From Candidatus Babeliales bacterium (lineage in GTDB: Bacteria > Babelota > Babeliae > Babelales > JANWKD01), in contig OY969622.1 in the NCBI GenBank assembly GCA_963701665.1, positions 704,001 to 768,000 on the forward strand: a stretch of DNA of 64,000 bases, given 5' to 3'. A program made the translations under genes and the position numbers. This document shows, piece after piece, positions 4,802 to 55,455 of this stretch (positions are counted from its first letter, which is position 1; the number at the start of each line of letters is the position of its first letter). The notes beneath the pieces are model-generated. The model was not told the DNA's origin and made no database searches. It worked only from the letters and a program-made list of their open reading frames with translations.

Positions 4802-4891
4802 ATGTCTTTTGACCTAAAATCATGTTTTCAACTGCAAATGATGCATCAAAAATCTATCCCTATTTTCTCTTCCTTTATTATTGTGCGCTAA
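4802..4891 (+). CDS. Putative Ile-sensing leader peptide of ileS (MSFDLKSCFQLQMMHQKSIPIFSSFIIVR)
   Basis: AAGGA SD; all 4 Ile codons within the last 11 codons; stop codon in loop of 11-bp hairpin. Confidence 0.6.
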   Translation: MSFDLKSCFQLQMMHQKSIPIFSSFIIVR

Positions 4892-4991: not shown

Positions 4992-7925
4992 ATGGCTGAA
5001 AAAAACACTGAGCAAGAAACGGGTGCCGTAAATTTTAAAGATACCTTAAATTTGCCTCGCACTGATTTTCCTATTCGTCCTGATGCCAAGCATGATGATA
5101 AAGCATTGCTTGAGCGTTGGGAACGAGAAAATCTTTTTTTTAAATCATTTATGCAGAACGAGGGAGCACAAAAATTTATTCTCCATGATGGTCCCCCCTA
5201 TGCCAATGGCAATATTCATTTAGGGACCGCCTATAATAAAATTATCAAAGATATTATTGGCAAATCGCAGCGCATGAAAGGTATGCACGCACCAATTACG
5301 CCTGGATGGGATTGCCATGGATTGCCGATCGAATTAAAAGTTACTAAAGAATTTTCTGAGTTGAAAGCGCAAGATTTAAAAAAAGCATGTCGTGAGTACG
5401 CAAAAAAATGGATTGATATACAAAAGGCTCAATTTAAAGGGCTTGGCGTTCTCATGGATTGGGATCGGCCGTATTTGACCATGAATTATGGCTACGAAGC
5501 ATCAGTGTTACGAGCTTTTGCAGATCTTGTGCAAAAGGGATATATCGAAAAAAAGAAAAAAACCGTGGCTTGGTGTTTTAATGATCAAACAGTACTTGCA
5601 TCTGCTGAAATTGATTATAAAGAACGTAAGGATCCTTCAATCTATGTTGCTTTTCGGCTTGCCTCGGATGCTGTTGCGCAATTAGTGCCATCGCTTAAAA
5701 ATAAACCAGTCAACCTACTAGTGTGGACAACAACACCATGGACATTGCCGCTCAATCGTGCGGTGCTTGTCAAACCAGAAACAGAATATAGCGTATTAGA
5801 AATCAATGATCACTATTATTGTGTTGCTTGCGCGCGCGCTGAAGCTGTATGCACGCTTTTGAATGTCCCTAAAAAAGTTGTGGCGACTATTAATTCCGCG
5901 GATTTTGTTAATGCGCGCGTGCATCATCCATTTATTGATGATTTGATGGTGCCTGTGTTGCTTGATAATTCTGTTTCAACGGACGATGGTACAGCCGTAG
6001 TGCATTGTGCGCCAGGGTGTGGGCCCATCGATTATGATGTTGCGCTTAAAAATAACCTTGAAATATTTTCACCAATTAGCCCTGATGGCAAATACACGCT
6101 TGGCATTGAACCGGCTGAATTAGTTGGTATGCCGGTAATGGACGGGCAAATTTGGGTGCTCAAAAAATTGACCGAAAAAAATGCACTCGTTTATAAAACC
6201 TCAATTCGGCACTCGTATCCTCATTGTTGGCGATGTGGCGAGGGGCTCATCTTCCGCGCGACTAACCAGTGGTTTTGTGATTTAGAACATGACAATTTAA
6301 AAGAACGCTCGCTCGATGCGATTGAAAAAATTACGTTCTTACCACCAAAAGCAATTAACTATTTAAAAGCAACGGTTGGCGGGCGTTTGGAATGGTGCCT
6401 TTCTCGCCAGCGCGTGTGGGGTGTGCCAATTCCCGCGTTATTGTGCAAACATTGTGATTATGTATATACAAATGTTGATTTGATACGCGCGGTTGCTGAT
6501 GGTGTTGAGCAACATGGCATTGAATATTGGGATACCGTTTCGCTCCATGACCTTGGTCATAAGCTTGATCATTGTCCGAACTGTAGCTCGCCAGATATAG
6601 TTAAAGAAAAAGATATTCTTGATGTGTGGTTTGATTCGGGTGTAAGCCATTATGCGGTGCTTGAACAAAATCCCCATTTAGCATTTCCTGCCGACATGTA
6701 TTGTGAAGGGGTTGATCAACATCGTGGTTGGTTTCAAAGTTCACTATTAACCAGTATGGTTATAGAAAATAAAGCCTGCACAAAAGCATTTTTGACGCAC
6801 GGATTCATTGTTGATGAGCGTGGACAAAAGATGTCCAAATCGTTAGGCAATGTTGTACTGCCAGAAGAGATTATTGAACAACTTGGCGTTGACGGTTTGC
6901 GCTTATGGGCTTCAAGTATTGATTATGGTGGTGATATTGTGGTGTCAAAAGTTGTACTCCAGAATGTTGCGCAAGTATACCGTAAAATCCGCAACACCTG
7001 CAGATTCTTACTTTCAAACTTGTATGACTTTTCCTATGAAAATGATGCACTTTCAGTGCATGAGCTTTCAGTGCTCGATCTTTTTGCATTGCAGGAATTG
7101 CATGAAGTTAATGCCGCGATTTTAGAAAAATATGCTGTCCATGATTTTACGGCGGTGTTTCATATGCTCAATGATTATTGTTCGGTGAACTTGAGTGCTC
7201 TGTATCTTGATGTGCTTAAAGATCGCTTGTATACGGAAAAAGCCCATGGTAAAGAACGTCGCGGTGCGCAAACATTGTGTTGGTTAATTTTAGATTCAAT
7301 TACCAAGGCCATGGCGCCAATTTTGTCATTTACGGCGGAACATGTTTCAGATTTTTATCAAAAAGATAAAGAGAGCTCAATCCATTTACAAAATTTTAAT
7401 AACGTGCCATCAAGTTGGTTGTTGCTTCTAGAAGAAAGTAAAAAAGAACAATCATCATCAATTCCATTACATTATCAGCCTTTTGCACAAAAAATTCAGC
7501 AAAAAGGACATGAGCTTGAACTACTTGCCATGCGCAAAAAGCAATGGGAATTTTTGCTCTCGATTCGATCAGCGCTGTTAAAAGCTATTGAACTACAGCG
7601 AGAGAAGGGACTTATCAAACACTCGTTAGAAGCTCATTTGCGCGTTTATTGTAATTTTAGTGATGAACAAAAAGAATTATTTAATGATTTTGTGAAATTG
7701 CTTGGAAAAAAGAATCAAACGCTTGAAGCTTTCTTGAAAGAATTTCTCATTGTTTCTCAAGTTACGATAGAACAACATGATCAAGGATTGATGTCATCTG
7801 AAATGCCAGGGCTTTCAGTGCTCGTTGAACATGCAAAAGGGAAGAAATGCCCTCGCTGCTGGAACTGGGATGAACACTATGATGCTGATGGTTTGTGCCA
7901 ACGGTGCCAACGAGTATTGAAGTAA
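4992..7925 (+). CDS. ileS: Isoleucine--tRNA ligase (bacterial type 1)
   Basis: LHDGPPYANG, PGWDCHGLPIE, WTTTPWTLP, DQHRGWF, KMSKS, C-terminal CPRC..CQRC zinc finger. Confidence 0.97.
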   Translation: MAEKNTEQETGAVNFKDTLNLPRTDFPIRPDAKHDDKALLERWERENLFFKSFMQNEGAQKFILHDGPPYANGNIHLGTAYNKIIKDIIGKSQRMKGMHAPITPGWDCHGLPIELKVTKEFSELKAQDLKKACREYAKKWIDIQKAQFKGLGVLMDWDRPYLTMNYGYEASVLRAFADLVQKGYIEKKKKTVAWCFNDQTVLASAEIDYKERKDPSIYVAFRLASDAVAQLVPSLKNKPVNLLVWTTTPWTLPLNRAVLVKPETEYSVLEINDHYYCVACARAEAVCTLLNVPKKVVATINSADFVNARVHHPFIDDLMVPVLLDNSVSTDDGTAVVHCAPGCGPIDYDVALKNNLEIFSPISPDGKYTLGIEPAELVGMPVMDGQIWVLKKLTEKNALVYKTSIRHSYPHCWRCGEGLIFRATNQWFCDLEHDNLKERSLDAIEKITFLPPKAINYLKATVGGRLEWCLSRQRVWGVPIPALLCKHCDYVYTNVDLIRAVADGVEQHGIEYWDTVSLHDLGHKLDHCPNCSSPDIVKEKDILDVWFDSGVSHYAVLEQNPHLAFPADMYCEGVDQHRGWFQSSLLTSMVIENKACTKAFLTHGFIVDERGQKMSKSLGNVVLPEEIIEQLGVDGLRLWASSIDYGGDIVVSKVVLQNVAQVYRKIRNTCRFLLSNLYDFSYENDALSVHELSVLDLFALQELHEVNAAILEKYAVHDFTAVFHMLNDYCSVNLSALYLDVLKDRLYTEKAHGKERRGAQTLCWLILDSITKAMAPILSFTAEHVSDFYQKDKESSIHLQNFNNVPSSWLLLLEESKKEQSSSIPLHYQPFAQKIQQKGHELELLAMRKKQWEFLLSIRSALLKAIELQREKGLIKHSLEAHLRVYCNFSDEQKELFNDFVKLLGKKNQTLEAFLKEFLIVSQVTIEQHDQGLMSSEMPGLSVLVEHAKGKKCPRCWNWDEHYDADGLCQRCQRVLK

Positions 7926-51628: not shown

Positions 51629-52537
51629 TTAGGCCTTTTCTGCCGTTATCATATATCCTTGTTTTAATTCTTCATGGTAAAAAATATATAATCCAATACA
51701 GACAACAATGAGTGACATAAAAAAGCTTATACTCACGCGCTCGCCTAAAAATAACCATCCAAATAATGCCGCAAAAAATGGTGTCGTAAATCCCGCAAAT
51801 GCAAGGAATGTCGCGGTATAACGCTTGAGTAAATAGCCATAAAAATTATAAAAAACAATATTAGCAAGAAGAATAATAAGCGCTGTTAGCCGAACAAACG
51901 GCCAAAAATCAGTCACCGGAGAAACCGTCCACCCTTCAATGCAGTAGGAAGTAAGAAGTGCTAATATACCGCCACCAACCATACCAATACCATTCACCAT
52001 GATTGGCGAATATTCCCCATCTTTTACTAATTTACGCATAGTCACCCAACCATATACCGCTGATCCCACAGCAAAAAGCATAATAAATTCTGGTAACATA
52101 GTCGCTGAAGAAAAAGAAGTCATATCTATATTGGCAATAATCTCAGGCGCAAAACCACAAAAGCCAATACCAAGCCCCAACCATTTTTTTAGCGTCATTT
52201 TTTCAGAAAAACAGAAATATGAAAATAAAGCTGCTAAAAATGGAGAGAAATTGTAAAGAAAGGATGATTTAAAAGAAGTTAGATATTGTAATGACCATAA
52301 ATCTAAGATATACGCGAAATAGACGTGAAAAAGAATAATCTGGAAAAACAATAAACGATCTTTCTTATGTATAAAAAACGTACGTTTATCTTGAAAATAC
52401 GAGTAACCGAGCAAAAGCATGCCCGCAACAAGCATGCGTACGCCAACCAAAAAAAGCGGTTTCACATATGCCAACAAGGCTTTACAAATGGTGAAAGTAC
52501 TAGCACACACAGCATACAATGCAATAATAGAAAACAT
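51629..52537 (-). CDS. DMT/EamA family transporter
   Basis: ~10 TM; shares WSLQY.S, EKMT.KK, LFGW.FLGE, YHEE with 34301 paralog. Confidence 0.85.
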   Translation of the reverse strand: MFSIIALYAVCASTFTICKALLAYVKPLFLVGVRMLVAGMLLLGYSYFQDKRTFFIHKKDRLLFFQIILFHVYFAYILDLWSLQYLTSFKSSFLYNFSPFLAALFSYFCFSEKMTLKKWLGLGIGFCGFAPEIIANIDMTSFSSATMLPEFIMLFAVGSAVYGWVTMRKLVKDGEYSPIMVNGIGMVGGGILALLTSYCIEGWTVSPVTDFWPFVRLTALIILLANIVFYNFYGYLLKRYTATFLAFAGFTTPFFAALFGWLFLGERVSISFFMSLIVVCIGLYIFYHEELKQGYMITAEKA

Positions 52538-52756
52538 AGAAGACCCTTTTTCTTAAAAGTCATTTGAACTTGAGGCAAGATAAAGTTATCGTGCCCCATA
52601 AATAATTTAATCAATCGCCCTTAGATTGCAAATGCATAGGCTCAAACATCAGCACTAATCCGCGCTGATCAGCCCTCCAACTTTTTTATCAATTTCTTCA
52701 AGATCATAAAACTGTAAAAATTTTTTAATATCCATAATATCCTTTAAAAAAGCCTA

Positions 52757-53527
52757 TTAAACAGTAACAACAATCTCTTGCCCAGGGAATGCTTGCAAAT
52801 AATCTCTCGCGCAACCTTGGTTAACCGCAATTTCAAGCGTTTCATTGCTCCCTTTATAGCACAGCAATTTTCCTGGCTGCACATTATCAAATGTAGTCAC
52901 AAAAAGCGCCTCAAAAGATTTTTCCTCTATCTTGAGGCATATCACTTTATTAAACCATGCAGCATCAGCTGGTATATTAGTTTTAATATTCCCAAAACTA
53001 TCGATATAGGTAATAATTTTTTGTGTTTCGAGAATATCACAATATTTAATATCTTTTTTATCAATCGGCAAAAGAGCATCACAATTGCCTTGAGCCAACC
53101 GAATTGCAATTGGTGCAAAAATATCTCTGCCATGGAATGTATTAGATTTTTCTGGGAAACAGAATTCGTTAATTTTAAAAACCGTTACACCCTCTTGCTT
53201 CAAAATATAATGAAACAAGCCATTATTGGGCCCAATAAAAGTATACGAGCCAAGTTTTACCACCAAACCACTCCGTTCAGTACCAACTCCTGGATCAACA
53301 ACCGCAATAATATAACTATTTTCTGGAAAATAGGCGTATATCTTTTCAAGCACAAATGCACCACTCACAACAGAAAACTTTTCTATAGAATGATCAATAT
53401 CGATAACTGAACTGTCAGGAATCGCACGCAATAAGGTTGCTTTTATTGTAGCAACGGCAAAGTCAAACCCAAAATCAGTCAATAGGCCAAAAGTAATATT
53501 CGTATTTTTTGAAGATAATAAATTCAT
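52757..53527 (-). CDS. SAM hydroxide adenosyltransferase / chlorinase-fluorinase family (DUF62)
   Basis: LLTDFG, VVDPGVGTER, GPNNG, SNTFHGRDIFAP, YIDSFGNIKTNI, LEIAVNQG. Confidence 0.92.
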   Translation of the reverse strand: MNLLSSKNTNITFGLLTDFGFDFAVATIKATLLRAIPDSSVIDIDHSIEKFSVVSGAFVLEKIYAYFPENSYIIAVVDPGVGTERSGLVVKLGSYTFIGPNNGLFHYILKQEGVTVFKINEFCFPEKSNTFHGRDIFAPIAIRLAQGNCDALLPIDKKDIKYCDILETQKIITYIDSFGNIKTNIPADAAWFNKVICLKIEEKSFEALFVTTFDNVQPGKLLCYKGSNETLEIAVNQGCARDYLQAFPGQEIVVTV

Positions 53528-53628
53528 AATCAAACCTCTCTCATTAAAATAAATGAAATAAAAGCATAACAAAAGCACATACCCTAAAAAGGGTTTAGCT
53601 TATAAAAAAAATAAGGGTAAAAAGAAAG

Positions 53629-53652
53629 ATATATGGCCTTAGGCCATCATAT
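53629..53652 (-). terminator. Attenuator-like hairpin with leader stop codon as loop
   Basis: ATATgATGGCC-TAA-GGCCATATAT then CTTTCTTTTT on minus strand. Confidence 0.55.
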
Positions 53653-53737
53653 AAAGAAGAGAGTATGACATAGCCATAAATGCCAAAAACAAAATTTTGC
53701 TTGTCTGAAGAGAACAGAAAATAATGTTAGGATTCAT
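53639..53737 (-). CDS. Putative Met-sensing leader peptide (MNPNIIFCSLQTSKILFLAFMAMSYSLLYMMA)
   Basis: GAGG SD; 4 internal Met codons in last 12; upstream TTGACA-17-TAAACT promoter. Confidence 0.6.
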   Translation of the reverse strand: MNPNIIFCSLQTSKILFLAFMAMSYSLLYMMA

Positions 53738-53777
53738 AGATACCTCACATGAATTGAATTGTTACTATTATATTTTA

Positions 53778-53806
53778 AGTTTAAGAATCAAATTCTAATT
53801 TGTCAA
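53778..53806 (-). promoter_or_regulatory. Sigma70-like promoter for Met leader/DUF62
   Basis: TTGACA-17-TAAACT on minus strand. Confidence 0.6.
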
Positions 53807-53910
53807 TTTTTTCCAAAAATAGCCTCCAAAGATGACCTTCCAATTATCACTAAAACGGGTTAGACTACGGGTAAAAAAAAATAGTTAATGTGTAAAAAAG
53901 AGAACTTAGT

Positions 53911-55455
53911 ATGAAGCATGTAAACACCCTCCTTTACCTAGCGTTGTTAGCATCATCAACATTTTTTTCTCATCTTCATGCAGGAGATTTATTTTTTGAC
54001 CATCATGAAACGTTTGGAAAGACATTCTATAATCCACGTTCTCCTGGTCTTAATAAAGCTCAAGAGTCTTCCGGCGTTGCACGTTTTATAGGGCCTTCAG
54101 AGGATTGCACAGTCGAAGGCTTTTTCGATATCACATCAGAATTCGGTATAAGTTTCAATAAAAATGCTGTAGGCCAATTTATTTTTTTTAATGGCTCTAG
54201 CACCATGAAAACCGGTACAGCCGGAGGGCCAGGTGTCGATATTTTTGGTCCAAATTTTTTATTAAATGATAATTTTACCGATGCCATCACAGCACGTCCG
54301 CAAGTTAAAACTGAAGTAATAGATTTTGGTTTTTATTGTTCTTTAGATCCCTTTATAGATGGTCTTTATGTTATAGCTAATGCAGCAGTTTGTTGGGCAT
54401 TTTGGGATGTAGATTTAATTGAATCACCAAGCTTCGTAGGAACCACCATTCAAGCTTTTGAATTAGGCAATCCGGTAGCAGAACCCGCACCATTCGATAA
54501 TTTAATTGATGCTTGGAATGGCCAAGCAACCTTCTTTGATGTTACACAACCATTGCAATATGCTCGCATTAATGGAACGCAAAAAAAATTCAGCGGCAGT
54601 GATATAGAGCTAGGTGTCGGTTATTTCTTCATTAGAGATGAATGCGCATACCTTAGCTTTAATGGACGTGTAATAATTCCAACGAGCAATAGACCGCAAG
54701 GAGTCTTCCTTTTTGAGCCCTGTACGGGAAATTTTCATCATGTTGAAGTAGGTTTTGGCATCTTAGGTGCAAAAGATTTGTGGTATTGTGAAAATAAACT
54801 GTTGCAAGGTTTTGTGAATGCAAACTTATATCATGCGTGCAGGAGCCGCCAAAGAAGATCATTTGATTTAATAAACAACGGCCCTGGCAGTCGATATTTA
54901 CTCTTCAAAACCTTTGATAGCACAGGCCACTATGCAGGAGAAATGGTACGTGGTCCAAATATTTTAACGTTGGATGTTGATGCACGAAACATGGTACACG
55001 GAGATGCCGTCTTTATGCTTGATTACAATCAAGGCGGATTCAATTGGAACATTGGCTATAATATTTGGGGCAGAACTAAAGATCAGCTTACATTGAAACA
55101 AACTATTCCCGGTAGTACCTATGGCATTGCGGGAGTTACCGGAACTAATCCTGCAGGAGATCGTGACAGGACTGCAAGCCAAACTACTATTAGCGGAGAA
55201 AACGCTGATTTGATCGATGGAGGCGCCACGGGCTCCTTCCTCAATAACGTATATCTAACTACCGAGGATATCGCTATAGGGTCAGCCGCCCACCCGGGCT
55301 GCTTTAGCCATGGCATTTTTACCTATATTGGCTATGTATGGGACTGCCAAACAGCCCCTTTTATAGGTTTGGGCTCTGAAGTCGAGTTTTCAGGGTCAAG
55401 AAACGATGCTTTGAGGGTCTGGCACGTTTGGGGTAAAGTAGGCTTAAATTTCTAA
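53911..55455 (+). CDS. Probable outer-membrane beta-barrel protein
   Basis: Signal peptide LHA, Gly/aromatic-rich alternating strands, C-terminal GKVGLNF, 9 Cys. Confidence 0.65.
   Translation: MKHVNTLLYLALLASSTFFSHLHAGDLFFDHHETFGKTFYNPRSPGLNKAQESSGVARFIGPSEDCTVEGFFDITSEFGISFNKNAVGQFIFFNGSSTMKTGTAGGPGVDIFGPNFLLNDNFTDAITARPQVKTEVIDFGFYCSLDPFIDGLYVIANAAVCWAFWDVDLIESPSFVGTTIQAFELGNPVAEPAPFDNLIDAWNGQATFFDVTQPLQYARINGTQKKFSGSDIELGVGYFFIRDECAYLSFNGRVIIPTSNRPQGVFLFEPCTGNFHHVEVGFGILGAKDLWYCENKLLQGFVNANLYHACRSRQRRSFDLINNGPGSRYLLFKTFDSTGHYAGEMVRGPNILTLDVDARNMVHGDAVFMLDYNQGGFNWNIGYNIWGRTKDQLTLKQTIPGSTYGIAGVTGTNPAGDRDRTASQTTISGENADLIDGGATGSFLNNVYLTTEDIAIGSAAHPGCFSHGIFTYIGYVWDCQTAPFIGLGSEVEFSGSRNDALRVWHVWGKVGLNF

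Follow-up and report, generated by a model that had tools for sequence, protein, structure and literature searches.

The DUF62 gene of the genome analysed here is preceded by a short open reading frame (ORF) in which methionine codons are conserved in frame among orthologous loci, a real, conserved and well supported Met-codon cis-regulator from which we infer the mechanism and the metabolic role discussed below. Judged from sequence comparison, the ribosome translating this leader very probably senses Met-tRNA, in whatever form the signal is then used; for the narrower proposal that the leader is a Met-sensing, Rho-dependent transcription attenuator of the DUF62 and EamA genes, the balance appears even. 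The sensing of Met shortage by translation, the interpretation offered in the initial annotation of this DNA, is supported by the in-frame conservation of the Met codons and by the lack of a riboswitch match. The 30 leaders compared constitute strong comparative evidence for a Met-sensing leader in a non-classical layout, which would work like a leader-peptide attenuator but with a different design. To our knowledge, methionine is not among the amino acids usually named as sensed through leader-peptide attenuation.

The leader lies in the window, the whole stretch of 64,000 nucleotides that was analysed, which is part of a single-contig genome of 1.34 Mb (37% GC, 93.6% complete), and all its parts are read on the minus strand. 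A predicted sigma70-type promoter, TTGACA-17-TAAACT, extends from 53806 to 53778 and matches the consensus at 10 of 12 positions. Nine promoter-like sites were found against 6.0 ± 2.6 in shuffled sequences, so that a single site is not above chance; comparison of the homologous leaders revealed a promoter-like site upstream of 19 of the 30, where 4.0 were expected. The Shine-Dalgarno (SD) sequence GAGG (53746-53743) is located 5 nt ahead of the ATG at 53737, and an SD-like motif, drawn from a loose motif set, accompanies an ATG in 22 of the 30 leaders. The ORF, identified by its reading frame and by comparison with homologues, comprises 32 codons (53737-53639), ends in Met-Met-Ala-stop and carries Met at codons 1, 21, 23, 30 and 31; four Met within the last 12 codons occur in only 2 of the 1149 intergenic short ORFs of the genome. 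Up to this point the parts are those listed in the initial annotation.

The stop codon occupies the loop of a hairpin, ATGGCC-TAA-GGCCAT (53647-53633; 6-bp GC stem, about −8.4 kcal/mol), which probably pauses polymerase or else acts as a weak terminator. It had been described as built from the Met codons; the hairpin is present, but of the Met codons just the last one, together with the Ala codon, contributes to its 6-bp core. The U-rich tract said to follow was also recovered, as a U/C-rich, G-poor segment (53632-53590) and not as a U-run abutting the stem. By its base composition this tract is a candidate Rho utilisation site, with 77.5% pyrimidine, a value matched or exceeded by 0.2-0.4% of the intergenic controls of the genome. 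A second small hairpin (53594-53581, within 53598-53581), likewise described before, is predicted by folding, but its conservation was not found beyond the same-genus genome and it is probably incidental. After a spacer of ~110 nt follows the DUF62 / SAM hydroxide adenosyltransferase gene (53527-52757, minus strand; 256 residues), and 219 nt past its end starts an EamA/DMT transporter gene (52537-51629, minus strand; 302 residues), which encodes two EamA domains and a candidate SAM importer. We infer that the two genes are co-transcribed.

The leader set comprised 30 sequences, 17 from 15 genomes and 13 of metagenomic origin; L011 (a near-duplicate of L008), L012 (broken by a stop six codons ahead of the last Met) and L136 (a match inside a coding region) were left out. 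As the 30 leaders are related, counts over them overstate independence. The last Met (codon 0) and codon +1 were not counted as evidence, since both belong to the search pattern. At codon positions −12 to −2, ATG accounts for 52 of 330 codons in frame versus 3 and 1 in the two alternative frames, the Met background in the proteins of the genome being ~2%, and Met is found at position −1 in 22 leaders. The 25 upstream codons are stop-free in all 30 leaders, and the stop stands at +2 in 28 of them. The initial annotation had made its proposal depend on Met-rich upstream ORFs before DUF62 orthologs and on conservation of their Met codons; both hold, in-frame Met being kept across the orthologs. 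The three leader frames contain similar numbers of Phe and Ile codons, so that the U-richness of the leaders is largely a property of the RNA; Ser is somewhat enriched in frame, and Cys shows no specificity for that frame (18 in frame versus 49 and 14). The leaders are 18-46 codons long and their peptides share a mean identity of ~11%, with no conservation past the last three codons. In the closest pair, formed by the leaders of the window and of G001, six codon changes are nonsynonymous versus two synonymous, and all four Met are retained.

The 261 genomes searched were taken as the phylum Babelota (TM6), described as parasites of protists (PMC6561590, PMC4776705). DUF62 is encoded by 16 of these genomes, and in 15 a leader precedes it, or precedes a cupin gene situated immediately before it. 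In the remaining genome, G214, the DUF62 gene is split. The leader of G069 has no ATG start, and G042 (L123) and G090 (L124) each display two Met leaders in tandem, which in G090 are placed one before the cupin gene and the other before DUF62. The 23 metagenome loci comprise 14 with an intact leader, six with none, one with a broken leader and two whose upstream DNA is too short. Four of the six leaderless loci form one clade (support 98/96), and the remaining two have broken DUF62 frames. Split DUF62 frames were observed at L026, L137/L027 and L138, L027 appearing to be the same DNA as the G214 locus; two of these loci are also without a leader, a combination that suggests decay of the leader-DUF62 unit.

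The exact core motif was matched seven times in the 261 genomes, each time before DUF62, and its reversed control gave no match. A collection of 185,579 species contained it in 87 stretches, among which a short leader, the tract and DUF62 were found together only in L062, L068, L098, L103 and L115; the leaders of L068 and L115 are the same as in the closest relatives of the window genome. The remaining exact-motif stretches appear to be chance matches and lie mostly within coding sequence. A relaxed pattern matched 38 places in the 261 genomes, and the 30 loci inspected revealed no new leader before another gene, while a covariance model (R2) run on 151 genomes returned 8 training-set matches and two weak ones, L158 and L159, that were not picked up by the motif check. 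A wider Met regulon was thus not found by the relaxed pattern in 261 genomes or by the covariance model in 151, and metG of G000 has no leader of the Met type upstream. G000 also contains a dispersed repeat with an ATG-GCG-TAG stretch, in at least four copies (G000:C1:394159, 560038, 645222 (+) and 350312 (−)), for which no relation to the leader was apparent.

Conservation at the RNA level concerns a core of only about 17 nt. For the hairpin, 86% of cells are paired and 7 cells are compensatory, a result reached by none of 500 shuffles, which do not take relatedness into account; with slid controls, pairing amounts to 12-44%. Its loop measures 3-6 nt across the leaders. The 40 nt after the hairpin display 72% pyrimidine and 5.7% G, compared with 50% pyrimidine and 15-16% G in controls. 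The tract is at least 65% pyrimidine in 27 of 30 leaders versus 9-10% of controls, and C exceeds G in 28 of 30, as it likewise does in the leader 3′ half (28 of 30). A Rho gene is present in all 16 DUF62-bearing genomes. The leaders and genomes thus display what characterises a Rho attenuator, namely a weakly structured tract with more C than G at the leader end and a genomic Rho, and Rho involvement, as judged from base composition, is the most likely form of leader control. The features of classical attenuators are shared in part. A translatable, SD-led ORF and cognate codons enriched in frame are predicted, but an intrinsic terminator with an adjacent U-run was not found at the conserved hairpin in the 30 leaders, and no downstream hairpin with a U tail is conserved across them. 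As for an antiterminator, pairing of the 3′ arm with upstream or downstream RNA does not surpass that of shuffled sequences (mean z −0.09 and −0.15). Lacking terminator and antiterminator, the Met leader is not filed as a classical attenuator.

In the Rho-dependent model, RNA polymerase would pause at the hairpin, so that a ribosome would gain time to load on the leader. When Met is plentiful, the ribosome would finish the leader and leave, exposing ~100 nt of weakly structured, U/C-rich RNA, which correspond to the leader 3′ half plus the tract; Rho would load on this RNA and terminate transcription in the ~110-nt spacer or early in DUF62. When Met is scarce, the ribosome would stall on Met codons that lie no more than ~10 codons from the stop, and would thereby occlude the Rho site. 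The EamA protein would then import host SAM, which DUF62 would split into methionine and adenosine. A difficulty for the model is that Met starvation lowers initiation too, and an untranslated leader could favour termination.

It is conceivable, if rather unlikely, that Met is sensed as proposed and that the hairpin itself is a weak intrinsic terminator, possibly assisted by NusG or NusA, whose 5′ arm is covered by the stalled ribosome. The invariant Met codon is part of that arm, the hairpin is retained in L020 and L125 despite a stop shifted downstream, and the Ile/Val/Leu leaders of actinobacterial ilvB overlap terminators (PMC1262725). Past the stem, 6-7 U occur within 8 nt in five of the 30 leaders, but the mean is 3.9 U and an A-run often comes first. 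In addition, the stems amount to merely −4.8 to −10.4 kcal/mol, in a genome where canonical hairpin-plus-U terminators exist at 57 of 419 free 3′ ends, and the Met codons at −9 to −5 lie too far upstream for a ribosome waiting there to cover the stem.

Met sensing could instead act on DUF62 translation, by SD sequestration or re-initiation, which we regard as improbable. Blocking the ribosome-covered segment shifts the predicted accessibility of SD and start by a mean of +0.03, with 7 of 30 leaders gaining more than 0.05 and one losing. The spacer between leader and gene, usually 85-135 nt, would suit such control, and mycobacterial polycysteine leaders provide a precedent (bioRxiv 834739); however, the tandem leaders of G042 and G090, and spacers that reach about 310 nt, better fit transcriptional control.

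The same layout was observed with other codons. Leaders with Thr, Ile and branched-chain amino acid (BCAA) codons surfaced when the short leaders of the genome were ranked on the tract, and they stand out only under this ranking; genome-wide, ORFs with the stop in a hairpin are not above shifted controls (11 versus 4-12 of 664). The downstream genes ileS, thrS and the BrnQ-family gene were identified above the NCBIfam cut-off. In the window, a 29-codon leader on the plus strand (4802-4891) with four Ile in its last 14 codons has its stop in the loop of a 10-bp hairpin, followed by a pyrimidine tract, 100 nt before ileS (4992-7925); it was not found at the other 33 ileS loci, same-genus genome included (1 of 34 in total). 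Before thrS, a plus-strand leader at G000:C1:805331-805429 (L191:331-429) contains four Thr and the ending Thr-Thr-Ala-stop, whose stop lies inside a 6-bp hairpin. The thrS leader of G003 has five Thr and the same ending, hairpin and tract, that of G014 a Thr run, a hairpin and a U tract, and L248 a Thr-rich short ORF. Such Thr-rich short ORFs occur at 4 of 30 thrS loci, and a four-Thr ORF at 1 of 34 ileS and 1 of 30 brnQ loci. The four loci with Thr-codon leaders before thrS correspond to L191, L231, L232 and L248. Upstream of the BrnQ-family transporter gene of the window genome the layout resembles the Met version, with a Val/Ile/Leu-rich, SD-led short ORF (G000:C1:523797-523648, minus strand), and the stop-in-hairpin arrangement is found at BrnQ-family loci of G000 and L288. 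Val/Ile/Leu-rich, SD-led ORFs, some with Met, were seen before BrnQ-family genes at L260, L263, L264, L277, L284 and L288. Although the Thr and Ile versions are patchy, the cognate codons change with the gene that follows, and this favours sensing of charged tRNA and induction by shortage. A further SD-led ORF, of 47 codons, with its stop in a 6-bp hairpin (G000:C1:322243-322100, minus strand), lies 111 nt before a gene for a 295-residue, secreted-looking protein with a weak peptidase M48 match.

Thr or Ile codons in the same layout before thrS and ileS speak against the idea, to us very improbable, that the signal is not Met-tRNA but SAM or another ligand, read through nascent-peptide arrest or a small riboswitch. 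The regulated genes do handle SAM, and the leaders have a highly conserved ending, Met-(Ala/Gly)-stop; the low peptide identity, with nothing kept beyond the last three codons, and the shortness of the conserved RNA core fit such a signal poorly. A scan of positions 52500-55000 against Rfam, proposed in the initial annotation as a check for a SAM riboswitch, gave five chance-level matches, all below the gathering score, none of them a SAM riboswitch or T-box. It is hardly credible that translation-coupled control is absent and that the ORF instead encodes a functional, stable small membrane protein or the palindrome serves as an operator for a transcription factor: the window peptide has a hydrophobic stretch (maximum 17-residue Kyte-Doolittle mean of 1.9) and the motif is palindromic DNA, but hydrophobicity in the leader frame does not exceed that in frame +1 (16 versus 15 of 30 leaders reach 1.6), peptide identity is ~11% with nonsynonymous changes dominating, and the variable loop length and compensatory stem changes are unlike an operator.

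The tnaC leader of E. coli encodes a conserved arrest peptide that senses free Trp and is induced by excess. In contrast, the Met-leader peptide is not conserved, a TnaC-type arrest peptide was not found among the leaders (11% mean identity), and the predicted sensor consists of hungry Met codons. The two have in common a leader ORF on which a ribosome stalled near the stop would mask a pyrimidine-rich Rho site (PMC1262725), and the lack of a terminator/antiterminator pair. Actinobacterial Cys leaders share cognate codons near the stop and have no conserved terminator (PMC1262725; bioRxiv 834739), and their polypyrimidine was proposed as a Rho site, as here (PMC1262725); they differ in the amino acid, in their leaderless ORFs and in that the locus tested is controlled at translation (bioRxiv 834739). 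For mycobacterial Cys leaders, the Rho proposal (PMC1262725) was followed by the finding of translational control at the tested locus (bioRxiv 834739). The conserved stop-in-loop hairpin of the Met leaders is not reported for Cys leaders in the accessible text of these sources (PMC1262725; bioRxiv 834739).

The leaders trpL, hisL, thrL and pheM share with the Met leader an SD-led ORF, cognate codons and a hairpin overlapping the leader end, and classical attenuator targets include aminoacyl-tRNA synthetases (PMC1183508), as do those of the layout described here. Unlike them, the Met leaders have no conserved antiterminator or downstream intrinsic terminator, are longer (18-46 codons) and carry Met codons that are dispersed and not in one run. 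S. lividans metL, located before metNIQ, was also proposed as a Met leader of Met-supply genes with no typical Rho-independent terminator (PMC8079986). It is a single-genome annotation, leaderless and from another phylum, with other target genes and another RNA layout, and in the accessible text of that source it is put forward without conservation analysis or experiment (PMC8079986). This annotation is the only Met leader that was found in the literature searched; the accessible parts of PMC1183508, PMC2965389 and PMC7755916 contain none. A Met leader before DUF62 or in Babelota was not found in a search of the openly accessible literature, and an earlier description may exist.

The DUF62 protein contains PF01887 and PF20257 above cut-off, the same two Pfam domains as StDUF62, PH0463 and archaeal SAMH, and retains the motifs DPGVGxxR and FHGRD, whose Asp, Arg and His we take to be catalytic. 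In the PDB it matches DUF62 proteins best (E about 1e-35), its scores lie below both NCBIfam (R)-SAM hydrolase cut-offs (134 versus 350 and 130 versus 470), and the loop after TDFG is one residue shorter than in solved homologues. Patescibacteria-named DUF62 proteins are about 50% identical to it. Characterised DUF62 enzymes convert SAM into Met and adenosine with a preference for (R,S)-SAM (PMC12120602), the minor SAM epimer (PMC12120602; bioRxiv 2025.08.29.672840). StDUF62 also attacks (S,S)-SAM afterwards, and the study that describes it questions whether the enzyme serves to remove the epimer in the cell (PMC12120602); archaeal knockouts accumulate (R,S)-SAM (bioRxiv 2025.08.29.672840). 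The initial annotation had DUF62 release Met from SAM, a claim complicated by this preference (PMC12120602; bioRxiv 2025.08.29.672840), which makes the Met yield from host (S,S)-SAM uncertain.

In 10 of the 16 genomes, and at many metagenome loci, an EamA gene is located downstream of DUF62 at a distance of at most 1.5 kb, in a neighbourhood scan that covered 70 of 96 neighbouring ORFs. One homologue of the EamA protein (58% identity) bears the automatic name SAM/SAH transporter and another (49% identity) comes from Waddliaceae; named homologues come from Dependentiae/Babeliales, the top atlas cluster is mostly Chlamydiota, and the NCBIfam matches are below cut-off. C. trachomatis CTL843 and R. 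prowazekii RP076 are EamA-type SAM transporters (PMC3104491). On these sequence relationships, the EamA protein may import SAM. At L014, metG follows DUF62-EamA. A small cupin gene recurs in the DUF62-EamA unit (L014, L124, L126, L132, L134 and L138) and is absent from the 219-nt gap of the window. At L131 (G220) and L123 (G042), an NhaC-like or Vut_1 transporter gene follows DUF62 in place of EamA; the NhaC-like family presumably includes Met transporters. MetK is encoded by 20 of the 261 genomes and was not found in any of the 16 with DUF62, an absence that is not significant since most genomes of the phylum share it (241 of 261; ~1.2 overlaps expected). The MetE and MetQ families were not found in any of the five genomes tried. 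Unlike that of known DUF62 SAM hydrolases, the genomic context here points to Met supply and not to epimer clean-up.

Control of a DUF62-EamA operon by Met codons, in parasites in which MetK was not found, would indicate that Met is scavenged from host SAM, a reading that predicts an altered epimer preference of the DUF62 enzyme. It touches the open question of the physiological job of StDUF62, doubted as (R,S)-SAM clean-up (PMC12120602). The cognate-codon logic also offers a route to substrate assignment for unknown transporters in Babelota. More tentatively, Babelota may possess an attenuator design of their own, defined by hungry codons, a stop inside a short hairpin and a Rho tract, which would be reused for Met, Thr, Ile and BCAA, together with import and hydrolysis of host SAM, probably (S,S)-SAM, as a Met source. 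If true, this would give DUF62 a nutritional role in parasites of protists.
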